This document shows positions 13,954 to 29,227 of a stretch of DNA of 32,000 bases, in pieces (within the stretch, counting starts at the first letter, position 1; each line of letters starts with the position of its first letter). Both the position numbers and the translations under genes were made by a program. Source of the stretch: an uncultured Planctomycetia bacterium (GTDB taxonomy: Bacteria; Omnitrophota; Gorgyraeia; Duberdicusellales; 4484-171). The stretch spans positions 1-32,000 of the forward strand of contig CAZHYN010000011.1 of NCBI GenBank assembly GCA_964536865.1, written 5' to 3'. Below the pieces are notes generated by a model. The model worked only from the letters and a program-made list of their open reading frames with translations, was not told the DNA's origin and did not search any database.

Positions 13954-15816
13954 ATGAAAAAGTTTGTCTTAAGTCTGGGTATGGCTTTTATTCCTCTATT
14001 AGCTTCTACTCAGGAAATTCCTACTTATCAACTTGGCAAGATTGTGGTTACAGCTACAAGAACAGAGCAATATCAGGCAGAAGTTGGAAGTTCAACTACA
14101 GTGATAACGGATGAGGATTTAAAGAAAAAAGGAAAAACTTATCTTTTAGATGTTTTAAGAGAAACACCTGGGGTATCAGTGACGCAATATGGTGGATTTG
14201 GAGGTGGGACAACTGTATATCTTCGAGGTGCAGAACCAGGGCATACTTTGGTGATGATTGATGGAGTGGAAGTAAATGATCCTATGGGGATGTATGGAGG
14301 ATATTTTGATTTTGCTCATATATTAACTGATGATATTCAAAAAGTAGAAATTGTAAGAGGCCCTCACTCTACATTATATGGTTCTGATGCTATAGGTGGG
14401 GTGGTTAATATTATTACTAAAAAGGGAGAAGGTAGCCCAAAATGGCAGGCATTGTTTGAAGGCGGTTCATATGATACATTTAAAGAATCTTTAAGTTATG
14501 CAGGCTCAAATGAGAGATTTAATTATTATTTTTCTCTGGTTCGGTTAGATTCAGATGGGATTTCTAAGGCAGAAGATGGTTCTGAAGATGATGCTTATAG
14601 AAATACGACCTTCTCCAGTCGTCTTGGCTATAAAATTTCTGAATCATCGGATCTGGATTTAATTTTTCGCTATATAGATGCAAAGACAGATTTAGACGAT
14701 GGGGCATATCAGGATGATCCCAATTATATTGCTTGGTGGAAGAACTTTGTTGGAAAGGCTTCATTCACTCAATGTGTAAACTCTTTCTGGGATTACAATC
14801 TTTCTTTTTCCTATTCCCGAACCAAAAGGATGTATCGGGATGACCCTGATAGTGTGGACACAACCGATAATACTCATAACTGGTATATAGGAGATAACAG
14901 AAAATTAGAATGGCAGAACAATATTTATCCCTTAGAGTGGGATACAATAACATTAGGATTTGAATATGAGAAAATAAGGGGTTATGAGAATGGAAGAAAT
15001 TCCTGGAATAGATTTGATAGAAAGACAATAGATAACAAAGCCTTTTATCTTCAGAATCAAACTAAACTTTGGAATAAACTTTTTATAACTGCTGGAGTCA
15101 GATACGATGACCACGAAATTTTCGGCAATGAAACTACTTACAGAATATCAACTGCTTATATTATCCCTCGTATAGGAGGACGATTTAAAGCCAACTGGGG
15201 AACGGGTTTTAAAGCTCCTTCTTTGTTTCAGCTATATTCTTCAAGTTATGGAGATATAAATTTACAGCCTGAAGAAAGCAGAAGTTTTGATATCGGCTAT
15301 GAACAGAATTTTCTGGATAATAAGTTATCTTTAAATTTAGTTTATTTTCATAATAAAATCAAAAATCTAATTCAATTTGATATGTCTACCTGGAAGTATA
15401 AAAATATTGGAAAGGCAAAGACCAAAGGAGTAGAGACAGGATTTAGTTTTAGCCCTTCTGAAGACTTAAAGGTCGGCATTAACTATACTTACTTAGATTG
15501 TAAGAATGAAATTACAGGGAAAAAATTAGCCCGTAGACCTGAAGATGAAATTTCTTTAAACATAAATTACAGATTTTTAGATAGAGGGAATCTTAATATT
15601 TCCACAAGTTATGTTGGCTGCCGCTGGGATGATAGTGCAAATACAAAGAAATTAAAACGATATGCTAAGGTTGACCTTACAGTTACTTATGATTTGGCAA
15701 AGAATTTTCAAATTTTTGCCAGGGCAGAGAATTTGTTTGATAAGGATTATATGCAAATCCGGGGATACAAAATGCCTAAAGCATCCTTCTATGCTGGAGT
15801 AAAGAGAACTTTTTAA
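13954..15816 (+). CDS. btuB: TonB-dependent outer-membrane corrinoid receptor
   Basis: Signal peptide, TonB box KIVVTATR, plug motifs (LLDVLRETPGV, LRGAEPGHTLVMIDGVEV, IEIVRGP.STLYGSDAIGGVVNIIT), and a terminal aromatic F. It is controlled by a cobalamin riboswitch. Confidence 0.85.
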   Translation: MKKFVLSLGMAFIPLLASTQEIPTYQLGKIVVTATRTEQYQAEVGSSTTVITDEDLKKKGKTYLLDVLRETPGVSVTQYGGFGGGTTVYLRGAEPGHTLVMIDGVEVNDPMGMYGGYFDFAHILTDDIQKVEIVRGPHSTLYGSDAIGGVVNIITKKGEGSPKWQALFEGGSYDTFKESLSYAGSNERFNYYFSLVRLDSDGISKAEDGSEDDAYRNTTFSSRLGYKISESSDLDLIFRYIDAKTDLDDGAYQDDPNYIAWWKNFVGKASFTQCVNSFWDYNLSFSYSRTKRMYRDDPDSVDTTDNTHNWYIGDNRKLEWQNNIYPLEWDTITLGFEYEKIRGYENGRNSWNRFDRKTIDNKAFYLQNQTKLWNKLFITAGVRYDDHEIFGNETTYRISTAYIIPRIGGRFKANWGTGFKAPSLFQLYSSSYGDINLQPEESRSFDIGYEQNFLDNKLSLNLVYFHNKIKNLIQFDMSTWKYKNIGKAKTKGVETGFSFSPSEDLKVGINYTYLDCKNEITGKKLARRPEDEISLNINYRFLDRGNLNISTSYVGCRWDDSANTKKLKRYAKVDLTVTYDLAKNFQIFARAENLFDKDYMQIRGYKMPKASFYAGVKRTF

Positions 15817-15955
15817 ACTCAAGATAAAAAATTATATAGAGCAAGGAGTCTACTTCTGTTAAAGAATCTATAAGGTTTTATTTAATAACAACTTTGTCCG
15901 AGTGTGTAAAGTTTATGCCACATATTCTGGTTTCTCAACAAGAAAGGAGTAATTG

Positions 15956-16576
15956 ATGTTTGAATTCTTCTTAAAAGGTGGCTTTTTAATTTGGCCAATT
16001 CTTTTATGCTCAGTGATAGCTTTTGCTATTGTTTTAGAGAGACTGTGGTATTTTCACCGGATAAACACCAATGTAGGTAATCTAACTGCTCAGGTAAAGA
16101 AATTATTGCTGGAAAGCAAATTAGAGGAAGCAGAAAAGTTATGTAAAGAATCAAGAAGTCCTGTAGCACATATTTTAGGAGTAGGTATTCATATCCATAA
16201 AAGAGCTTATCCTGAGAAAGAAAAGATAGTCTCAAGAGCTGGTTCAAAAGAGTTAAGAAAATTGGAGAAAAATTTAAGGGGTTTAGGAATTATTGCTCAT
16301 ATATCACCTCTTTTAGGTCTTTTAGGCACAGTTACAGGGATGATTAAATGCTTTATGAAGATACAGGAGTTAGGAGGAAGGGTAGATGCACAAGTTTTAG
16401 CAGGAGGAATCTGGGAAGCTTTAATTACTACAGCAGCAGGATTATCTGTAGCAATTCCAGCAATAATTTTTTACCACTATTTTGAAGGAAAGATAGACAA
16501 TTTTTCTCATCAGATGAAGGATGCAGCAGAGGAAATTTTAGAGCACCTGAGCACCAGCACACCAGAGCGCCAGTAG
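15956..16576 (+). CDS. exbB: MotA/TolQ/ExbB proton-channel protein
   Basis: Three TM segments and PLLGLLGTVTGMI, the family signature. SD AAAGGAG at 15943-15949. I use the ATG at 15956; the track begins one codon earlier at a TTG. Confidence 0.85.
   Translation: MFEFFLKGGFLIWPILLCSVIAFAIVLERLWYFHRINTNVGNLTAQVKKLLLESKLEEAEKLCKESRSPVAHILGVGIHIHKRAYPEKEKIVSRAGSKELRKLEKNLRGLGIIAHISPLLGLLGTVTGMIKCFMKIQELGGRVDAQVLAGGIWEALITTAAGLSVAIPAIIFYHYFEGKIDNFSHQMKDAAEEILEHLSTSTPERQ
16543..16574 (+). repeat. Four tandem 8-nt units (GCACCWGN-like) at the exbB 3' end
   Basis: The units are gcacctga, gcaccagc, acaccaga and gcgccagt. They are followed immediately by AGGAAAGT and the exbD ATG. Confidence 0.6.
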
Positions 16577-16582
16577 GAAAGT

Positions 16583-17008
16583 ATGGAATTTGAAAGGGGA
16601 AAGAGAATAAGAATACATTTAGATATTGCTCCTTTAATAGATATAGTCTTATTACTTCTGGTCTTTTTTATGCTCACATCAAACTTTATTATGCAACCAG
16701 GAATAAAGATAACTTTACCTAAAGCAAAAATCTCCAAACCCCAGGAAGAAGAAAATATTATTGTATTTATAACCAAAGACAACAAAATATACCTTAACGA
16801 TAGAGAAATAAGTATTGATGAGTTAAAGGATGCTTTGGAGGAGAAACTAAAAACAGCTCAAAAAAAGATCGTGGTTCTAAAAGCCGATGAGAAGATTAAC
16901 CTTGGTCTGGCGGTAAGAGTGATGGATATTGCAAAAGAAGCAAAAGCAGAAAACTTGATAATTTCAACCGAAATGGAGTACCAGCACAATAGAGCACCAG
17001 AGCACTAG
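16583..17008 (+). CDS. exbD: ExbD/TolR biopolymer transport protein
   Basis: Single N-terminal TM (IAPLIDIVLLLLVFFM) and a periplasmic ExbD-type domain. It lies between exbB and tonB. Confidence 0.85.
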   Translation: MEFERGKRIRIHLDIAPLIDIVLLLLVFFMLTSNFIMQPGIKITLPKAKISKPQEEENIIVFITKDNKIYLNDREISIDELKDALEEKLKTAQKKIVVLKADEKINLGLAVRVMDIAKEAKAENLIISTEMEYQHNRAPEH

Positions 17009-17049
17009 AGCACCAGCGCACCAGTAGGAGAATAACTGGTAACTGGTGC
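16994..17049 (+). repeat. Four tandem 8-nt units (GCACYAGN) across the exbD stop, plus inverted AACTGGT x2 copies before the tonB start
   Basis: The units gcaccaga, gcactaga, gcaccagc and gcaccagt span 16994-17025. AGGAG follows. Then aactggt/aactggtgc at 17034-17049, which is the reverse complement of GCACCAGT. Confidence 0.6.
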
Positions 17050-17052
17050 ACT

Positions 17053-17751
17053 ATGAAGCAACCTGTGTCAGAAGACAGAGTAATAAAAATTACCTTCATA
17101 ATTTCACTTACAGCCCATTGTCTGTTTTTAGGAGCGCCTGGATTTAATTCAAACAGGCGTCAACCTGAGAATTCCGAGAAAATATCTGTTCAGATTGAAA
17201 TAGAAAAGCCACCTCTTTTGCCTAAAATAGATGTAATGGGAGAGGAGAAAAAGCTTCCGCCCGAGGCGGATCCGCCCTCCGTGGAGAAAAAGATAGTGAA
17301 GGAAGAAAAGCTACTCGAGCCAAAATCTCAACCCGAAGAAGAAAAAATTGTGAAAGAGCCAGAGCCACAACCCAAAAAGCAGATAAAAGATATAAAAGTA
17401 GAACAACCCCAGCCAGAACCAGCTCAAGAAATTGTAGAGGTTATAAACCCTCAAAAAGAGGCAATGCTCAGGTATCAGGATATGATTAAACAGAAGATTG
17501 AATCTCATCGTAAATACCCTCCTTGGGCAAAGAAACATGGAATTGAGGGAACAGTCCATCTTAAATTTACAATTTTATCTACAGGTTTTGCCAGAGATAT
17601 TAAAATTATAAAGTCATCAAGTTTTAATATCTTAAATAAAGAAGCAATCTCTACAGTAAAAAGAGCTCAACCTTTTCCACCTATTCCTCCTGACATAAAT
17701 ACCTCTTCTCTTTCAATGGAGGTTTCTATCGTCTTTACATTGCAATATTGA
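17053..17751 (+). CDS. tonB: TonB energy transducer
   Basis: N-terminal anchor, a Pro/Glu/Lys-rich spacer (EPKSQPEEEKIVKEPEPQPKKQ..QPQPEP), and a C-terminal TonB domain (YPPWAKKHGIEGTVHLKFTI...G). Confidence 0.8.
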   Translation: MKQPVSEDRVIKITFIISLTAHCLFLGAPGFNSNRRQPENSEKISVQIEIEKPPLLPKIDVMGEEKKLPPEADPPSVEKKIVKEEKLLEPKSQPEEEKIVKEPEPQPKKQIKDIKVEQPQPEPAQEIVEVINPQKEAMLRYQDMIKQKIESHRKYPPWAKKHGIEGTVHLKFTILSTGFARDIKIIKSSSFNILNKEAISTVKRAQPFPPIPPDINTSSLSMEVSIVFTLQY

Positions 17752-17770
17752 AAAGAAAAAAGCAGGTGGC

Positions 17771-17899
17771 CTTAAAGTAAATGAGCATTTAACTTTGAGC
17801 CCTGATTTGCAGGTTATCTTGAACCCGTATGATGAAGATGCGATAAATGGAGATAAAATCATTGCTATTGTTGGCTTAAGGGCACAGGTTGATTTTTAA
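17771..17899 (+). pseudogene. Possible 3' remnant of an outer-membrane porin gene (OprB-like C-terminus)
   Basis: The frame reads ...LKVNEHLTLSPDLQVILNPYDEDAINGDKIIAIVGLRAQVDF*. It ends in a typical beta-barrel terminal Phe. No in-frame start codon or N-terminal part is present. Confidence 0.3.
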
Positions 17900-18046
17900 A
17901 GATTATTTTGCGGTTTTTCATCACTAAAATTTTGCTTCTCTGTATTATCAAAACGAGCAATTCATATCTTTGTTTTAAAAACAATGAGAATTTTCATATA
18001 TCACCAATAAATGAATATGCAGCGAACTTTTATTTTCTCAAAAAGG

Positions 18047-18075
18047 TTGACAAGAGAATAGTGATTTGGTATTCT
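18047..18075 (+). promoter_or_regulatory. Putative promoter of the Fur-family gene, overlapped by an imperfect palindrome
   Basis: TTGACA at 18047-18052, a 17-nt spacer, and TGgTATTCT at 18067-18075. The inverted repeat TCTAAATGAAA/TTTCTATTTAGA spans 18073-18099. Confidence 0.45.
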
Positions 18076-18113
18076 AAATGAAACAGATTTCTATTTAGAT
18101 TTAAGGTGTTATT

Positions 18114-18530
18114 ATGAAAGATATGAAAGAATCATACTTAAATAAATTAAGAAAGAATAAGCTTAAACTGACTCCTAAACGAAGAGCGATTATAGATTTC
18201 TTTCTATATAAGGACCGATATTTAACTCCTCAAGATCTCTGGAGAGGATTAAGGAAAGAGTTTGTCCACCTTGGTTTGCCCAGTATTTACAGAAATTTGG
18301 AAGCATTTTCTAAATGCGGAATATTGACAAAAATTCAAAGGCCTGATAGAAGGCTCTATTATGGACTATGTAAATCTGAGAATAAGCATCACCACCATAT
18401 AATTTGTATCAGATGTGGTAAGGTTAGAGAATTTTCTGATTGTGATTTATTCAAGAAGAAAACTATTAAAGGGTTTAAGGTAATAAGCCATTCTTTGCAG
18501 ATAGAGGGTATATGCTCTAATTGTAGATAA
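18114..18530 (+). CDS. Fur-family metalloregulator (metal specificity undetermined)
   Basis: Winged-helix N-terminal half (LTPKRRAIIDFF), the HHHHIICIRCGKV motif, and a C-terminal CSNC. Confidence 0.85.
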   Translation: MKDMKESYLNKLRKNKLKLTPKRRAIIDFFLYKDRYLTPQDLWRGLRKEFVHLGLPSIYRNLEAFSKCGILTKIQRPDRRLYYGLCKSENKHHHHIICIRCGKVREFSDCDLFKKKTIKGFKVISHSLQIEGICSNCR

Positions 18531-18559
18531 GCAGCTAATTTTTTTTATTTATTAAATGG

Positions 18560-18574
18560 AAATGATTTTCATTT
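18560..18574 (+). promoter_or_regulatory. Candidate Fur-family operator
   Basis: Perfect inverted repeat AAATGA-ttt-TCATTT, nested in TTAAATG..CATTTAA (18552-18576). It lies 18 nt upstream of the ATG of the membrane-protein gene. Confidence 0.4.
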
Positions 18575-18591
18575 AAGGTGAGGAGGTAAAA

Positions 18592-19182
18592 ATGTTTAAG
18601 CAAATATTGAAAGAATTAAGAAGGCACGCTCCCTTTACCAGTTTAGGAGCCTTTACTGGTATTATTATCATGATAATCTCCTATAAGCTCCCTGCCAGGA
18701 CTTCTTATAATATCTTTTATATACTTCATCCTCTCCATGTTCTTTTAAGCGCATTAGTCACTGCTTCTATGTATAAACTTTATAAAGATAAGGCTAAATT
18801 CTGGAATCTAATCTTAATTGGTTATGGGGGTTCGGTTGGTATAGCTACATTGAGCGATTGTGTAATTCCTTATTTGGGTGAGATATTATTAAATCTGCCT
18901 AATAGAGGTATTCATTTGGGATTTATTGAAAAATGGTGGTTAGTAAATCCTTTGGCATTTATAGGTATTGCTGTAGCTTATTTTAAGCCAACAACCAAAT
19001 TTCCTCATTCCGGTCATGTTCTCTTAAGCACCTGGGCATCCCTATTTCATATTATTATGGCAATAGGGCAGACTCTGAACTGGTTTTCTTATATAGTTGT
19101 CTTTTTATTTTTGTTTCTTGCGGTGTGGTTTCCTTGTTGTTTAAGCGATATCATATTTCCCTTATTGTTTGTGAGAAAATGA
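18592..19182 (+). CDS. Uncharacterised polytopic membrane protein with internal two-fold repeat and His/Asp/Cys motifs (putative metal transporter)
   Basis: SD GAGGAGG lies upstream. H46-P-L-H49-VLLS repeats as H139-S-G-H142-VLLS. LSDCVIP (res 87-93) repeats as LSDIIFP (res 184-190), and a CC pair is present. The protein is hydrophobic throughout. Confidence 0.7.
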   Translation: MFKQILKELRRHAPFTSLGAFTGIIIMIISYKLPARTSYNIFYILHPLHVLLSALVTASMYKLYKDKAKFWNLILIGYGGSVGIATLSDCVIPYLGEILLNLPNRGIHLGFIEKWWLVNPLAFIGIAVAYFKPTTKFPHSGHVLLSTWASLFHIIMAIGQTLNWFSYIVVFLFLFLAVWFPCCLSDIIFPLLFVRK

Positions 19183-19332: not shown

Positions 19333-19528
19333 AAAATTAAGAGTGTTTTTCCTCACCAAATTTACCTTACACTTCTCTCTTTTATCCCAAAAATTTACCC
19401 CCAACCACAGAAAGCCATCCCTCTTTTAAGGAAAGGGCGGGGTAAGCCCGTGGTTCGGGGTTTACTTAAATTTATTTTGCAATAACATTTAACACTTTAT
19501 TGTTGTAGCAGCAAAGGAAGGAAAAGTA

Positions 19529-19583: not shown

Positions 19584-19874
19584 ATGTCTATGATAGATTA
19601 TAGAAAGATAGCTGATTTTTTTGATGCCCTTTCTCATCCTATTCGGCTAAGAATAGTAGTGGAGTTACTGAGAGGTAGAAGGTGTGTGGGAGATATAAGA
19701 GAGTTAGTAGAGACTAAACAACCAAATGCCTCTCGTCACCTCTTACTTTTGAAGTTTAACGGTATTGTAGACTGGAGACAGGAGGGACGGATGAAGTGTT
19801 ACTTTTTAAGGAGTCCTCAATTAATAAAAGATATTTTAAAAGTATTGGAGAAAAACAAACTAAGTAAGCTTTAG
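19584..19874 (+). CDS. ArsR/SmtB-family transcriptional regulator
   Basis: LSHPIRLRIVVELLRGRRCVGDI followed by QPNASRHLLLLKFNGIV, which is the ArsR-type HTH. SD GGAAGGAGG lies upstream. Confidence 0.85.
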   Translation: MSMIDYRKIADFFDALSHPIRLRIVVELLRGRRCVGDIRELVETKQPNASRHLLLLKFNGIVDWRQEGRMKCYFLRSPQLIKDILKVLEKNKLSKL

Positions 19875-21603: not shown

Positions 21604-21900
21604 ATGAAGATGCAGGAGAGGATTGAGAAAGCTCTAAAGAGTATAGAGCATCCTGAAATTGCATATACTCTTTGGGAATTAGGAATGCTTGAAGGGATTG
21701 TTGTTAAAGAAGATAAGGTGTTAGTTACTTTGAAACTTCCTAGAGTAGGTGTGCCCATTCGAGAACAATTGATAGAGAGTATCAAGAGTGCTGTGAAAAA
21801 TGAAAATGTTCATATAGATGTTAAGATAAGTATAAAAGAAATGAGTGATGAGGAACGTATAAGATTTATGAAGATGGCCCAAGAAGCATGGAAAGGATAA
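21604..21900 (+). CDS. DUF59/MIP18-family (SufT-like) Fe-S assembly protein
   Basis: The pattern IEKALKSIEHPEIAYTLWELGMLEGIVVKEDKVLVTLKLP is typical of DUF59. SD GGAGGG lies 5 nt upstream. Confidence 0.75.
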   Translation: MKMQERIEKALKSIEHPEIAYTLWELGMLEGIVVKEDKVLVTLKLPRVGVPIREQLIESIKSAVKNENVHIDVKISIKEMSDEERIRFMKMAQEAWKG

Positions 21901-21901
21901 A

Positions 21902-22858
21902 ATGAGTTCTTTTGAGAAAAATGAAAAAATAGAACGGAAAGAGGTATTAATAATTGGAGGTGGTCCGGCAGGACTTAGTGCAGGAATCTACGCTGGATAT
22001 TTTGGAATTGAGGCATTAATTCTTGAGAAGGGAATCTTGGGAGGCGTAGCGGGAGAAATTCCTCTGTTAGAGAACTATCCTGGGATTGAGAGTAAAATTA
22101 CAGGTAGAGATTTAATAGAAAGAATGGTGAGAAGATGTGATGAGGTAGGAGTAGAGAGGCATCAGTTTGAAGAGGTTGTTAAATTACAACTTAAAGATAC
22201 ACCTAAAGTAGTGGAAACAGATAAGTCTAAATATCTTGCTGATAATGTAATTATTGCCTCAGGAAGAGCTCATAGAACATTGGGGGTAGTAGGAGAGGAG
22301 GAGTTTAGGGGAAGAGGAGTAAGCTACTGTGCTGTGTGTGATGGAGCTTTCTTCAAGAATAGGAAAGTGACAGTAATAGGAGAAAGTTTTCCTGTTGTAG
22401 AAGTTGCTTTATATTTTTCTAATTTAGCATCGGAAGTAGTTCTAGTGTATTTAGGTTCTAAAATAGATATAGAAAAGAGTTTAATCACTAGATTAGAAGA
22501 AAAGAAAGTAAAACTTCTAAAAAACGTAGAGGTGAAGGAGATTAAAGGAGAAGTTAAAGTAAGAAGTGTGGTTGTAGGGGATAAAAAAACACACGTTACT
22601 AAGGAGATAGACACCGATGGTGTATTCTTTCAGGTAGAGGGAATTCCCCAGAGCAGACTAGCGAAAGAGGCAGGGGTGAGGGTAGACAAAGAAGAATATG
22701 TGATTATAGATGAAAAGATGAGAACCAATATTAAAGGAGTGTATGCTATCGGCGATGTTACTAGTTGTGAAGTTAAACGGATAATTACTGGAGTTGCTCA
22801 GGCTTTAGTAGCCATCACGGATATATTTAGGGAGAAAGCCGGATATGTTACAAAATAA
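21902..22858 (+). CDS. Thioredoxin-reductase-like flavoprotein lacking NADPH-binding motifs
   Basis: FAD motif IIGGGPAGLSAG, redox CAVC (nt 22328-22339), and C-terminal GVYAIGDV. The expected GGGNxAxEEA reads GESFPVVEVA, and the expected HRRDxFRA reads YLGSKIDI. Confidence 0.85.
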   Translation: MSSFEKNEKIERKEVLIIGGGPAGLSAGIYAGYFGIEALILEKGILGGVAGEIPLLENYPGIESKITGRDLIERMVRRCDEVGVERHQFEEVVKLQLKDTPKVVETDKSKYLADNVIIASGRAHRTLGVVGEEEFRGRGVSYCAVCDGAFFKNRKVTVIGESFPVVEVALYFSNLASEVVLVYLGSKIDIEKSLITRLEEKKVKLLKNVEVKEIKGEVKVRSVVVGDKKTHVTKEIDTDGVFFQVEGIPQSRLAKEAGVRVDKEEYVIIDEKMRTNIKGVYAIGDVTSCEVKRIITGVAQALVAITDIFREKAGYVTK

Positions 22859-24642: not shown

Positions 24643-24912
24643 ATGGCTGAGATCTATATAGAAGAATTTATGTCACCAGGATGTGTAGGTTGTCCAGCGG
24701 TAAAACAGATGCTTGAAGAGTTAGTAAAGGAGTTAGATGGGGAGATTACTATAGAGGAGGTGGATATAAGTGTCGATAGTGCAAGAGCTATTCAGTATGG
24801 GGTGATGTCCGTTCCAGCTATAGCTATTAACGGAATATTGAAATTCATAGGTGTCCCAAAGAAAGAAGATTTAAGGAAAGCCTTGGAGGAGGAGTTAAAA
24901 AAGGATGGATAA
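24643..24912 (+). CDS. Small thioredoxin/glutaredoxin-fold protein (CVGC active site)
   Basis: 89 aa. SPGCVGCPAV near the N-terminus and the cis-Pro region MSVPAIAING. Strong SD AGGAGGTGG. It lies between hdrA and hdrC. Confidence 0.75.
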   Translation: MAEIYIEEFMSPGCVGCPAVKQMLEELVKELDGEITIEEVDISVDSARAIQYGVMSVPAIAINGILKFIGVPKKEDLRKALEEELKKDG

Positions 24913-25435
24913 GAAGGAGCTATTTAGCCAACCTATTTCAAACGTTAATTTCGATCCTACTTTTGAAGCTGAAGTTATAGCTCATGAGGAGGCTAAAGAT
25001 TTGAAGGCTTGTTTTAACTGTGGAGCTTGTACAGCAGGATGTCCTATTCATGAAGTATTTCCTGAGTATGATCCTAAGAAGTTAGCTAAGATGGTAAGGT
25101 TAGGAATGAGAAAGGAGGTATTAAGTAGTCCTTATATTTGGTATTGTGCTACTTGTCACAACTGCGAACAACGTTGTCCTCAGAATGTTAAGTTTTTCAA
25201 TGTTTTAAACGTCTTAAAGAATATGGCAGCTAAGGAAGGATATGCTCCTTCTGTATGGGTTGATCAGATAAAACATGTTATTAAGACAGGAATAATATTC
25301 CCCCCCCAAGAGAGTTGGATTAAAAGAAGGGAGAAGCTTTCTCTCCCCCCTTTAAGGTTGGAGGAGAGAGAAGAAATAAAAAAGATAATTGAACTGGAGG
25401 AGATTGATAGGTTAAGTAAGGATAAGAGTGAGTGA
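24905..25435 (+). CDS. hdrC: Heterodisulfide reductase subunit C-like (2x[4Fe-4S])
   Basis: CFNCGACTAGCP and CATCHNCEQRCP with typical HdrC spacing. 8-nt overlaps on both sides. Confidence 0.8.
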   Translation: MDKKELFSQPISNVNFDPTFEAEVIAHEEAKDLKACFNCGACTAGCPIHEVFPEYDPKKLAKMVRLGMRKEVLSSPYIWYCATCHNCEQRCPQNVKFFNVLNVLKNMAAKEGYAPSVWVDQIKHVIKTGIIFPPQESWIKRREKLSLPPLRLEEREEIKKIIELEEIDRLSKDKSE

Positions 25436-26303
25436 GTATGCTTTATTTTTAGGATGTACTACTCCTACAAAAGCTGTTCAATATGAGCTTGCTTCAAGAT
25501 GGGTCTGCAGGCATTTAGAAATTAACCTAGTAGATATTAAAGATTTTTTTTGTTGTGGGATAAATCACGTTAATTTGGATAGAGAGACAGCACTTCTTAT
25601 GGCAGCAGCAAACTTAGCTTATGCTGAAGCCAAAGGATTAGATATACTTACTCTCTGTGCCGCTTGTACAGGAGCGCTTTCCGAAGCAATAGAGAAGTTA
25701 GAGAATTTCCAGATAAGAGAAAGGGTAAATGAAAAGTTACATAGAATAGGCATAGAATATAAAGGAAAAGTTAGAGTAAAACATCTCTCTAGAGTTCTTT
25801 ACGAAGATATAGGAGTAGAGAGATTGAGAAGAAGTATAAAAAGAGATCTTTCTCAGCTCAAAGTAGCTCCCCATTATGGATGCCATTACTTGAAACCAAA
25901 AACTGCCCTAAGAGGAGTCGATGAGCCAGATAATCCTACAACATTACATGCTCTTATATCTGCTATAGGAGCTACTCCCGTAGAATATGAAACACTTAAT
26001 CTTTGTTGTGGGGGTAAGGTATTTCCTGTTTCTGGAGAGTTAGCCCATTCATTAATCCAGAAGAAGCTGGATAATTTGAAGGAGAAGGAAGTAGATGCAA
26101 TGGTTCTTCAATGTCAGACTTGCTATCTTATGTATGGGGAAGAACAAAAGGAAATAGAAGGAAAGAGTGGTAAGAAATACAACCTACCAGTTATTTTTTA
26201 CCCCCAACTCTTAGGAGTGGCTTTAGGAGCAGATCCTATAAAAGATTTAGGGTTTAATTTTCATACTATTTCTGTGGATGGTCTTTTAAGTAAAGTGAGA
26301 TAG
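25428..26303 (+). CDS. hdrB: Heterodisulfide reductase subunit B-like (two CCG domains)
   Basis: LFLGCTTP...FFCCG and APHYGCHYLKP...LCCGG. GTG start overlapping the hdrC stop. Confidence 0.85.
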   Translation: MSEYALFLGCTTPTKAVQYELASRWVCRHLEINLVDIKDFFCCGINHVNLDRETALLMAAANLAYAEAKGLDILTLCAACTGALSEAIEKLENFQIRERVNEKLHRIGIEYKGKVRVKHLSRVLYEDIGVERLRRSIKRDLSQLKVAPHYGCHYLKPKTALRGVDEPDNPTTLHALISAIGATPVEYETLNLCCGGKVFPVSGELAHSLIQKKLDNLKEKEVDAMVLQCQTCYLMYGEEQKEIEGKSGKKYNLPVIFYPQLLGVALGADPIKDLGFNFHTISVDGLLSKVR

Positions 26304-26312
26304 GAAGTTTCG

Positions 26313-26897
26313 ATGTATTCTAAAGTAAGAAAGTGGTTGGAGGAGGATGGAGAAAAATTCTTAAGGAAAGTTGGACTTAGGAGGGGGCAAATAGTGTTAG
26401 ATTTTGGATGTGGAGAAGGACATTATACTATTCCTGCAAGTAAAGTAATTGGGGAAAAAGGTAAGGTCTATGCTTTTGATAAGGATGCTTATATACTAGA
26501 GAGACTAAGAAGATTAGCCGAAGAAGAAGGATTAAGCAACATAGAGATAATTAAAGGGGATACCAAGATTCCTTTAGAAGATAACTCTATTGATGTAGTT
26601 CTCTGTTATGACGTTATCCATTATGAAAAATATAGAGAGAGGATTTATAAAGAAGTCTTTCGTATTTTAAAATCAGAGGGCTTCTTTTCTCTTTATCCTA
26701 AGCACTATAGAGATGATTATCCTCTGATGGAGTTAGCATCTTTAGGATTGGAAGAAGTAATAAAAGAAGTAGAGAAAGTTGGTTTTACTTTACAAGAAAA
26801 ATTGTTCTATCAGTGTCTTCATGATGAATATTACAATGAGTGCTGTATATTAAATTTTATTATTTCTGAAGAGAAAAAGGAGGAAAGTAGTGTTTAA
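26313..26897 (+). CDS. Class I SAM-dependent methyltransferase
   Basis: Motif I VLDFGCGEGHYT, an acidic post-I residue (YAFD), and VDVVLCYDVIHY. Confidence 0.8.
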   Translation: MYSKVRKWLEEDGEKFLRKVGLRRGQIVLDFGCGEGHYTIPASKVIGEKGKVYAFDKDAYILERLRRLAEEEGLSNIEIIKGDTKIPLEDNSIDVVLCYDVIHYEKYRERIYKEVFRILKSEGFFSLYPKHYRDDYPLMELASLGLEEVIKEVEKVGFTLQEKLFYQCLHDEYYNECCILNFIISEEKKEESSV

Positions 26898-27183
26898 AGT
26901 AGATGAGAAAAAGTGTATCGGATGTGGAGCTTGTATAAATGTTTGCCCTGTTGGCGCAATATCAATGAAGGATGGAAAAGCTAAGATTGATGTAAAGAAA
27001 TGTTTAAACTGTGGGAAGTGTGCTCAAGTTTGTCCTCAAGAAGCGATCTATTCTGAGTCAGGTGAATTCCAAAGTAAATTTATTCCTAGACCAGGTTTTA
27101 ATTTCTTTACTTTTAGTAGAGGGAGAGGTATGTCTGGAAGGAGAAAGAAAGGTTTTGGTAGGGGAAGAGGAGGGAGGTGGTGA
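26890..27183 (+). CDS. 2x[4Fe-4S] ferredoxin with Arg/Gly-rich C-terminal tail
   Basis: CIGCGACINVCP and CLNCGKCAQVCP, then the tail SRGRGMSGRRKKGFGRGRGGRW. GTG start overlapping the methyltransferase 3' end. Confidence 0.85.
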   Translation: MFKVDEKKCIGCGACINVCPVGAISMKDGKAKIDVKKCLNCGKCAQVCPQEAIYSESGEFQSKFIPRPGFNFFTFSRGRGMSGRRKKGFGRGRGGRW

Positions 27184-28632: not shown

Positions 28633-28906
28633 GTTTGGAGGAATTTATAGACATTTGCTTGGAGGCAATGAGAGAGATTAAAGAAGATCTTGGATTGTAA
28701 GAATAGAGATTCTGTAATGAAGAGTACAGGTAAGGAGATAAGTGTTAATTTTAAGCAAAAAAGGATTTAGATTCTAAATGTGATGCAAATTATGGATGGG
28801 TAGACACTTTAAAGGGTAACAAAGAGCATCTTCTTCTTCATATTAAAGAAATTCCCCATGATTGTTGAATACTACATTTGTGTTTCTTAAAGGTAAGAAA
28901 GGAGGG

Positions 28907-29227
28907 ATGATGGAGGTTAGAGTGGATGATACAAATTTCCAGCAGGAAGTATTAGAGTCAGATATTCCAGCTTTAGTAGATTTTTGGGCTCCTTGGTGTA
29001 TGCCTTGTCATATAGTTGCTCCTATTCTTTCTGAGATTGCTATAGAGTATGAGGGAAAGTTGAAGGTATGTAAGTTAAATGTTGACGAAGCTCCTAATAT
29101 CGCTTCCCGGTATGAAGTAATGAGTATACCTACCTTGGCACTGTTTAAAAAAGGTGAAATGGTAGACAAAATTATTGGTGCTGTTGGTAAGCCCGAATTA
29201 GAAAATATGGTTAAATATTATATTTGA
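28907..29227 (+). CDS. trxA: Thioredoxin
   Basis: VDFWAPWCMPC active site and MSIPTLALFKKGE. I prefer the ATG at 28907, which is preceded by AAAGGAGGG, over the track TTG at 28862. Confidence 0.88.
   Translation: MMEVRVDDTNFQQEVLESDIPALVDFWAPWCMPCHIVAPILSEIAIEYEGKLKVCKLNVDEAPNIASRYEVMSIPTLALFKKGEMVDKIIGAVGKPELENMVKYYI

Follow-up and report, generated by a model that had tools for sequence, protein, structure and literature searches.

Thioredoxin is known to be reduced by NADPH (NTR), by ferredoxin acting through a flavoenzyme (FFTR/DTR) or an Fe-S enzyme (FTR), or by F420H2 (DFTR). To our knowledge, none of FFTR, DTR, DDOR or DFTR is associated with heterodisulfide reductase (Hdr). Here we describe a thioredoxin reductase (TrxR)-like flavoprotein encoded in a 32,000-nt stretch of DNA (referred to throughout as the window) from an uncultured Planctomycetia bacterium that GTDB places in the Omnitrophota (contig CAZHYN010000011.1, positions 1 to 32,000). 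The protein has lost both pyridine-nucleotide-binding motifs but keeps its redox-active CxxC, and its gene heads a five-gene unit with hdrA, a small thioredoxin gene (trx), hdrC and hdrB. An earlier note, made from the letters of this stretch, had proposed that the enzyme probably does not use NADPH and that its donor may be the neighbouring HdrA or ferredoxin.

Several TrxR-fold enzymes that work independently of NAD(P)H have been described, namely clostridial FFTR, cyanobacterial FFTR/DTR, DDOR and DFTR (PMC8154056, PMC10880999, PMC8498797). Clostridial FFTR occurs in strict anaerobes, lacks both NAD(P)H motifs and keeps the CxxC (PMC10880999). The hallmark of DTR is a C-terminal tail with a stacking aromatic residue, and in TrxRs without NADPH motifs the FAD is reduced directly by ferredoxin, which binds in the groove between the domains (PMC8154056). 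DFTR takes F420H2 as its donor and has been described only in Methanococcales (PMC8498797). On the Hdr side, HdrA is known from complexes with a hydrogenase, formate dehydrogenase, F420 or NADH module (PMC12054007, PMC9012536).

The window gene encodes a homologue of low-molecular-weight thioredoxin reductases (coordinates in Table 1): its top PDB sequence matches were all TrxRs (E about 1e-53 to 1e-40), its CxxC stands in the context GVSYCAVCDG as in genuine TrxRs, and its C-terminal GD motif is intact. Against TIGR01292, the NCBIfam equivalog model for thioredoxin-disulfide reductase, it scored 277.9 bits, which is below the cutoff of 343.45. The alignment register of the two altered stretches, GESFPV and YLGSKIDI, was taken from HMMER alignments to solved TrxRs, and a MAFFT alignment to E. 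coli TrxB agreed; the PDB alignments gave the same register independently of the E. coli reference. In this register the earlier note had read the sequence correctly, in that CAVC is retained, GGGNTA is replaced by GESFPV, and HRRDGFRA is replaced by YLGSKIDI, which it had placed within nt 22448-22477. A regular-expression search of the 318-aa protein found no second GxGxx[AG], no HR[RK] and no RRxxxR in any register. The AlphaFold (AF2) model (pLDDT 86.6) keeps the beta-alpha-beta unit, with strand 155-160, helix 163-173 and strand 178-183, and the altered stretches sit at the turn after strand 1 (GESFPV) and after strand 2 (YLGSKIDI). Intact motifs in a shifted register, the finding that the earlier note had said would speak against it, are thus ruled out by the search and by the secondary structure of the model. 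These data confirmed that the loss of both NAD(P)H motifs from the window protein is real. Foldseek placed the model nearest to T. acidophilum TrxR (3cty, TM 0.90), and the protein was predicted in the flavin-reducing (FR) conformation. The clade-specific Glu246 (22637-22639), which replaces a universally conserved Gly of the inter-domain hinge strand, could alter the domain rotation between the flavin-oxidizing (FO) and FR states.

The same substitutions were present in nearly all close homologues, typically as GEGSPAAE and CLRPRIEAEK; because they recur over the whole clade, they are more than a chance feature of one sequence. The nearest 120 database homologues shared 48-62% identity with the window protein, except for a near-identical copy (P0001, 99%), and they came from metagenome-assembled genomes labelled Omnitrophica/Omnitrophota and Aminicenantes. 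Hosts of the clade were Omnitrophota, Aminicenantes/Acidobacteriota and WOR-3. We counted motifs over 89 non-redundant clade members. All 89 carried the CxxC (CAVC in 87, CALC in 2), and HRRxxxR was intact in none. The position of His175 was never His (Cys in 76/89, Tyr in the window protein), that of Arg176 was Arg in just two members, and that of Arg181 was never Arg (Glu in 42, Cys in 34). The dinucleotide loop was more mixed: GxGxx[AG] was intact in 45/89, usually as GEGSPA, and its position 2 was Glu in 73/89. The second glycine (position 3) was G in 49, D in 28, K in 5, N in 3, E in 2, A in 1 and S in 1, the lone Ser being that of the window protein, which is among the more degenerate members of the clade. 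The earlier claim that both NADPH motifs are lost therefore holds for the window protein, with the nuance that the first motif is only half lost across the clade.

The FAD-site glycines G19, G21 and G24 were invariant in 75 clade sequences, as were the CxxC cysteines in the full set. That the second loop glycine varies while the CxxC and FAD motifs do not, together with the score below the TIGR01292 cutoff, makes use of NADPH improbable; all three residues of the 2'-phosphate site are gone, and as far as sequence goes this supports the earlier proposal that NADPH is probably not the donor. We found no conserved acidic residue of the type typical of NADH sites after strand 2 of the clade proteins. 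The motif counts of the clade are as would be expected if dinucleotide binding were no longer selected while the CxxC-bearing domain still was. Many residues seldom seen in NTRs are 90-100% conserved in the clade, including Cys79, EIP at 52-54, the Gly-to-Glu change of the hinge strand (FFQ[LV]E) and Lys292, which argues for a new function over degeneration. Decay into a pseudogene was rejected, as the open reading frame is intact, many clade residues are invariant and all partner proteins are conserved.

To place the clade, we built a neighbour-joining tree of 165 non-redundant sequences comprising the clade, canonical TrxBs from 80 genomes, archaeal relatives, E. coli TrxB, 3cty, 7jyp and 4zn0. 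The motif-less clade was monophyletic (bootstrap 98/100), with no canonical-motif member inside it. Its sister group consisted of P0116 and P0120, which carry GGGNSA plus HR[RK]xxxR, and the partly degenerate P0119, and the joint grouping was found in 100/100 replicates. Because the sister lineage keeps the canonical motifs, the loss would have arisen within an NTR-like lineage. It appears to be independent of clostridial FFTR, Gloeobacter DTR and DDOR; FFTR and DTR reference sequences stand outside the tree, and these two families are excluded on the grounds of bit scores, features of the tail and the sister group with its canonical motifs. The earlier note had named FFTR, DTR and DDOR as examples of motif-less TrxR-like enzymes: the parallel in NADPH independence stands, whereas membership in those families does not, given the canonical sister lineage and scores of 106 and 131 bits to the FFTR and DTR structures.

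The likeness to clostridial FFTR is nevertheless considerable, since both have a TrxR fold with FAD and CxxC, lack GxGxxA/HRRxxxR, come from strict anaerobes and are presumably Fe-S-fed. The relation is distant, however (106 bits to 6gna vs 185 bits to NTR-type structures), and FFTR is a free-standing homodimer encoded with trxA and not hdrABC, whereas the window gene adjoins hdrABC. Cyanobacterial FFTR/DTR (Gloeobacter, 5j60, 6xtf) and DDOR (5n0j, 5jri) are likewise TrxR-fold flavoenzymes, and they do not use pyridine nucleotides. Gloeobacter DTR 5j60 matched the window protein with 131 bits; unlike DTR, the clade proteins have a tail that is not extended (a median of 33 residues past GD vs 36 in E. 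coli TrxB), and beyond their last helix no aromatic residue is conserved. DDOR of the Gloeobacter Gll2934/Synechocystis Slr0600 type was absent from the PDB matches of the protein at E<=1e-10. DFTR was compared by description only, and the clade comes from bacterial hosts. The top two PDB sequence matches, T. acidophilum TrxR (3cty) and Thermosipho africanus TrxR (7jyp), both at E ~1e-53, share the lack of HRRxxxR but keep a GGGNSG/GGGDSA dinucleotide loop. The T. acidophilum enzyme was reportedly found later to use NADH, and we know of neither enzyme being encoded with Hdr. In AhpF and its homologues (TIGR03143), too, a TrxR-like module gives its electrons to a PDO-like double-thioredoxin-fold partner dedicated to it; a PDO-like domain of this kind lies, in the window, in the 351-aa protein encoded nearby. 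AhpF uses NAD(P)H and has a CxxC-bearing PDO domain fused to the reductase; in contrast, the PDO-like domain of the window has no Cys, is fused to a classical thioredoxin and is separately encoded.

Loss of the NADPH motifs is in itself not rare among TrxR-like proteins: among the 150 best representatives at 50% identity, 81 had both motifs, 46 had GxGxxA alone and 20 had neither, and the Hdr-linked clade accounts for about two representatives at this level. What sets the clade apart is its gene context. We traced five diverged members to their contigs, and all of them encoded the TrxR-like protein, HdrA (~590-597 aa), a small thioredoxin (87-89 aa), HdrC and HdrB. A clade-specific DNA pattern yielded 73 metagenome loci, some of them near-duplicates. 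In every clade locus with at least 400 nt of downstream sequence, hdrA was the next gene on the same strand (47/47), and the full hdrA-trx-hdrC-hdrB order followed in 22/22 clade loci with at least 3.7 kb downstream; hdrA was found in none of the 15 non-clade hits to the pattern. Canonical TrxB loci (32-40% identity, mostly Firmicutes), retrieved with the generic patterns CAVCDxxFF and EIPxLENYPG, served as a negative control and as an outgroup. Among the matches listed, hdrA was found within 9 kb in 0/80 of these loci, and the generic-pattern genome scan contained no clade member among the matches listed. Sampling from the other side gave the same picture: in three of three hdrA loci chosen without reference to TrxR, one of them from a WOR-3 genome, hdrA was preceded by a TrxR-like gene and followed by trx-hdrC-hdrB. 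Over 21 distinct loci, the TrxR-like protein and HdrA correlated in their pairwise distances with r=0.87, as tightly as the Hdr subunits do among themselves, indicating that the five genes are inherited as a unit. The contrast between 47/47 clade loci and 0/80 canonical NTR loci supports the earlier suggestion of HdrA, encoded next door, or ferredoxin as a possible donor.

The partners are genuine Hdr proteins with one consistent omission. In methanogen Hdr, the C-terminal ferredoxin domain of HdrA takes electrons from MvhD to the bifurcating FAD (PMC9012536). The window HdrA aligned to residues 3-575 of the 654 of 5odc_A and ends there, so that the C-terminal 2x[4Fe-4S] ferredoxin domain (~residues 576-654 of 5odc_A) is missing; the top 120 HdrA homologues were all 565-599 aa long. 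The FAD site, the N-terminal cluster, the TrxR-domain cluster and the inserted ferredoxin domain were all found, with every Fe-S cysteine conserved. Glu356 and Lys409 are regarded as important around the bifurcating FAD (PMC12054007). Lys409 was kept in 33/33 sequences, and the position of Glu356 was Ala in 33/33; the subfamily also has a uniform Gln at the position of Glu354. All 8 Cys of HdrC were conserved in 29/29 sequences and all 10 CCG-motif Cys of HdrB in 28/28. The small thioredoxin matched TIGR00411 (E=6e-24) with 83.9 bits, below the cutoff of 92.75; its CxxC was conserved in 30/30 sequences and the full GCVGCP in 29/30, and in the surveyed clade loci its gene always lay between hdrA and hdrC. 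In one sub-lineage an acyl-carrier-protein-like gene (PP-binding, 84 aa) was seen between hdrA and the small trx gene (L003 8737-8991 and L165 6808-7062).

As in MvhAGD-HdrABC and the FdhAB-, F420-HdrA2B2C2 and FlxABCD-HdrABC systems, the unit thus has genuine HdrA, HdrC and HdrB with all cluster ligands and a third redox module beside hdrA. Here the third module is a CxxC flavoprotein, whereas in the known HdrA complexes it is a hydrogenase, formate dehydrogenase or NADH dehydrogenase. The unit also differs from these complexes in that its HdrA is without the C-terminal ferredoxin domain and Glu356 and in that a thioredoxin is embedded in the operon; unlike methanogen Hdr, it is found in bacteria with no known link to CoM/CoB chemistry. 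By its sequence features, the window protein is an FAD/CxxC protein of the TrxR fold in which no NAD(P)H site is conserved, and its gene is inseparable from those of a thioredoxin and of an HdrABC devoid of its usual input domain.

Table 1. Features of the TrxR-like/Hdr locus in the window, in order of position; columns give the feature, its coordinates, the strand and remarks.
ArsR-family regulator	19584..19874	+	HTH_5; upstream in ~16 related loci; two invariant Cys, C34 and C72
PDO/AhpF-N-terminal-like (Cys-less) plus C-terminal thioredoxin (WCAPC) fusion, 351 aa	20432..21487	+	TIGR02187 at residues 7-195, TIGR01068 at residues 250-345
DUF59/FeS_assembly_P protein	21604..21900	+	PF01883 E=4.5e-10; 1 nt upstream of the TrxR-like gene; accessory
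TrxR-like flavoprotein, 318 aa	21902..22858	+	subject of this work; Pfam Pyr_redox_2 E=5e-42
FAD-binding GGGPAG, residues 19-24	21956..21973	+	sole GxGxx[AG] in the TrxR-like protein (regular expression)
Cys79, FAD domain	22136..22138	+	100% conserved in the clade vs 4% in canonical NTRs
Redox-active CAVC, Cys143/Cys146, residues 143-146	22328..22339	+	both Cys invariant in the clade
GESFPV, residues 160-165, replacing the NAD(P)H dinucleotide loop GxGxxA	22379..22396	+	opposite GGGNSA/GGGDSA of solved TrxRs
YLGSKIDI, residues 183-190, replacing HRRxxxR (2'-phosphate site)	22448..22471	+	opposite HRRDHLKA of 4zn0
HdrA, 594 aa	22845..24629	+	start overlaps the TrxR-like stop by 14 nt; E=8.5e-180 to 5odc_A
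Small thioredoxin, 89 aa, MJ0307 family, active site GCVGCP	24643..24912	+	Pfam Thioredoxin_3 E=1e-15
HdrC-like protein, two [4Fe-4S] motifs	24905..25435	+	Fer4_8; TIGR03290 E=8e-29, below model cutoff
HdrB-like protein, two CCG domains (disulfide-reducing site)	25428..26303	+	CCG x2; TIGR03288 E=1e-73, below model cutoff
S-adenosylmethionine (SAM)-dependent methyltransferase	26313..26897	+	Methyltransf_31/11/25; accessory, frequent
2x[4Fe-4S] ferredoxin, 97 aa, with Gly/Arg-rich tail	26890..27183	+	Fer4 domains; weak match to HdrA2 model positions 573-626

The genes of the window follow the order arsR, def, the 351-aa PDO-like/Trx fusion, DUF59, TrxR-like, hdrA, the 89-aa trx, hdrC, hdrB, the SAM methyltransferase and the 2x[4Fe-4S] ferredoxin. 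Within the five-gene unit the intergenic gaps are -14, +13, -8 and -8 nt, and by this spacing the five genes are predicted to be translationally coupled. A terminator-like hairpin lies before arsR (19440-19467); promoter-like sites in the window were at chance level, and apart from this hairpin the scan was uninformative. The ArsR-family protein is probably the regulator of the operon. Its two cysteines, invariant in operon-linked homologues (C34 in KCVxDI and C72 in KCYFL), suggest a thiol-based switch and not the classical As(III) CVC site.

The accessory genes recur but vary by locus, and comprise the two-Cys ArsR, DUF59, the PDO-Trx fusion, the methyltransferase, the ferredoxin and ParA/CbiA-ferredoxin ATPases. 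The DUF59 gene held the same position in L094, L100, L118, L130, L157 and L160, and orthologues of the 351-aa fusion, an accessory protein and candidate substrate, were found downstream of hdrB in L004, L092, L098, L110, L116, L164 and others. The methyltransferase gene lay 3' of hdrB in L001, L101, L106, L113, L114, L134 and L148, and was followed by a ferredoxin orthologue in at least six loci. The ferredoxin is a candidate electron carrier, or a candidate detached stand-in for the missing ferredoxin domain of HdrA. Its conserved, basic, Gly/Arg-rich tail, RGRGMSGRRKKGFGRGRGGRW, is unusual for a ferredoxin, and the RG/GRG repeats are even longer in the orthologues of L106, L113, L114, L120 and L134. 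Elsewhere in the window, the stretch 13954-19182 holds genes for a TonB-dependent receptor with ExbB/ExbD/TonB and for a regulator of the Fur family (18114-18530), and about 1.7 kb downstream of the operon a canonical thioredoxin of 121 aa (WCMPC) is encoded at 28862-29227.

Outside the clade, several arrangements were observed in passing. The nearest relative with canonical motifs (P0116; GGGNSA, HRKxxxR; L086 6001-9350) is encoded directly upstream of an NfnAB/SudAB-like pair, made up of a DHODB_Fe-S_bind protein and a GltD-like flavoprotein, and not of Hdr; this arrangement would connect a TrxR that uses NADPH with a bifurcating enzyme that generates it. Further independent lineages of TrxR-like proteins also lack the NADPH motifs; they were present among L111, L121, L123, L128, L144 and L145, among L006, L008 and L009, and in L073. 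In one of the motif-less lineages, the 'VGEGHEAV...IPGKKGYSG' group, a gene for a small thioredoxin follows after 6-7 nt and Hdr is absent; further lineages comprise Bathyarchaeia/Thermoproteota proteins and a Clostridia protein. We considered the latter (L073) as a representative of FFTR and rejected it, as it is NTR-like (229 bits to 4gcm vs 112 to 6gna). P0268, an apparently eukaryotic protein of 1427 aa with ankyrin repeats, PH domains and two TrxR modules, is without HRRxxxR and scored an unexpectedly high 342 bits against the clade profile.

We think it probable, from motif loss, partner conservation and gene order, that the TrxR-like protein reduces thioredoxin independently of NAD(P)H, as a module wired to HdrABC and ferredoxin. 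With its FAD and Cys143/Cys146 disulfide, it would serve as the dithiol/disulfide-exchanging module of the five-gene unit, docked on the HdrABC complex, in which HdrA is devoid of its C-terminal ferredoxin domain, or belonging to that complex as a subunit. Single electrons would pass between the Fe-S/FAD chain of Hdr, ultimately reduced ferredoxin, and the FAD of the TrxR-like protein, either directly or via the co-encoded ferredoxin, in analogy to the docking of ferredoxin in the inter-domain groove of FFTR/DTR. The FAD would hand them to the CxxC, from which the MJ0307-type thioredoxin of the unit, the 351-aa PDO-Trx fusion or both would receive them. The direction we favour is the reduction of thioredoxin from reduced ferredoxin in an ArsR-controlled thiol-redox operon, a choice guided by the regulator, an ArsR-type thiol switch, and by the accessory genes for Fe-S maturation. 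That the proteins form a physical complex, which donor serves it, which way the electrons flow and that thioredoxin is the substrate are points that we infer from gene content and conservation.

Several observations weigh against this proposal. The TrxR-like protein is itself devoid of Fe-S clusters, and the path that electrons would take from the HdrA clusters to its FAD is hypothetical. The Ala at the position of Glu356 means that the chemistry of HdrA may itself be altered. No natural fusion of a TrxR-like protein with HdrA was found among the long matches in the representative library; those considered as Rosetta-stone fusions (P0268, P0292, P0298, P0300 and P0407) turned out to carry ankyrin/PH or Trx domains in fusions of an unrelated kind. 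The sequence of the TrxR-like protein diverges more rapidly than those of its partners (p-distance 0.39 vs 0.24 for HdrA), which fits a peripheral component better than a core one, and tight synteny can mirror a shared regulon rather than physical coupling. Finally, half of the clade keeps GxGxxA, so that a nucleotide such as NADH is possible for those members.

Each alternative was rated singly; the alternatives overlap with the proposal of a module wired to HdrABC, and the likelihoods are not meant to add up to one. One of them is a free-standing ferredoxin-dependent TrxR convergent with clostridial FFTR, whose FAD is reduced by a soluble ferredoxin (e.g., that at 26890-27183), while HdrABC would be separate and merely co-regulated in a thiol-redox regulon. 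The combination of lost NADPH motifs and a kept CxxC is that of FFTR (PMC10880999), a ferredoxin gene is in the operon at many loci, thioredoxin genes are adjacent and the faster evolution of the TrxR-like protein relative to the Hdr subunits agrees with it. We nevertheless consider it unlikely: a shared regulon alone does not explain head-to-tail adjacency to hdrA in 47/47 loci, often with overlapping stop and start, the loss of the input domain in all HdrA homologues or a trx gene embedded between hdrA and hdrC, and the small ferredoxin is missing from many loci. Dependence on NADH or another nucleotide, as in the T. acidophilum enzyme, would agree with 3cty as the best structural match, with the lack of HRRxxxR in 3cty and 7jyp despite their GGGNSG and GGGDSA loops, and with the GxGxxA kept in 45/89 clade members. 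Atypical Desulfovibrio reductases, like the T. acidophilum enzyme, are without HRRxxxR and still bind a dinucleotide. We regard this as very improbable, as GESFPV of the window protein has Ser at the second glycine and Val at the final Ala, the second glycine is D, K, N, E, A or S in 40/89 members, which is incompatible with a conserved dinucleotide site, an NADH-type acidic residue is not conserved after strand 2, and the strict linkage to Hdr would be left without a reason.

It is also conceivable that the protein is not a thioredoxin reductase, its FAD and CxxC acting instead on a persulfide, polysulfide, low-molecular-weight disulfide or metalloid, or that it is chiefly a structural Hdr subunit. 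The score below the NCBIfam cutoff, the clade-specific residues including Cys79 and the Gly-to-Glu change of the hinge strand, a DsrE gene adjacent in L001 and the presence of ArsR and an ArsM-like methyltransferase in the operon are consistent with such a role. It seems improbable to us, given that two to three Trx-fold proteins with an intact CxxC are co-encoded, one of them extremely conserved and embedded in the core unit, that the CxxC context is that of genuine TrxRs, and that the accessory genes vary by locus. The last alternative differs from the wired module in energetic coupling and direction only: the TrxR-like protein would be the mid-potential entry or exit module of a bifurcating or confurcating Hdr, in which thioredoxin (dithiol/disulfide potential ~-290 mV) replaces H2, formate, F420H2 or NADH and is coupled to ferredoxin at low and to a second disulfide at HdrB at high potential. 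Being encoded just upstream of hdrA, it is the obvious candidate to replace the missing input path of C-terminal ferredoxin domain and MvhD. In HdrA, Lys409 is still present, as are the inserted ferredoxin domain and the N-terminal cluster, and HdrB keeps both CCG sites; with this retention the unit would have two disulfide-handling sites (CxxC/FAD and HdrB) and a ferredoxin-type exit. The Ala at Glu356 in 33/33 HdrA sequences argues against it, a physiological need for thioredoxin-driven ferredoxin reduction is not evident, and ArsR control and Fe-S maturation genes suggest a role in homeostasis or stress rather than in catabolism. We therefore hold this alternative only tentatively, as possible but doubtful.

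Searches combining TrxR or thioredoxin with HdrA/HdrABC or with the host phyla found no description of this cluster in the searchable full-text literature, although an earlier mention in the HdrA(BC)-module review (Appel et al. 2021) or in the primary DFTR paper is possible. Together, these data suggest an undescribed link between thioredoxin and Fe-S/ferredoxin electron chains in anaerobic bacteria. If the proposal is true, a reductase wired to HdrABC would add another route of thioredoxin reduction and would provide a concrete, testable substrate, a protein disulfide, for bacterial Hdr-like complexes, whose function beyond methanogens and sulfate reducers has long been debated. The five-gene module is compact, sharply delimited and widespread in uncultivated anaerobic phyla, which makes direct synthesis and reconstitution feasible. 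Should energy coupling also hold, flavin-based electron bifurcation would be extended to thiol/disulfide donors. The five-gene unit may then, though we put this forward with reserve as the less expected outcome, be a new class of HdrA-based bifurcating or confurcating system with thioredoxin at mid-potential, coupled to ferredoxin and to the HdrB disulfide. As a bifurcating system it would be the first in which thioredoxin takes the part of H2, formate, F420H2 or NAD(P)H, and a bacterial HdrABC would for the first time be assigned a protein-disulfide substrate.

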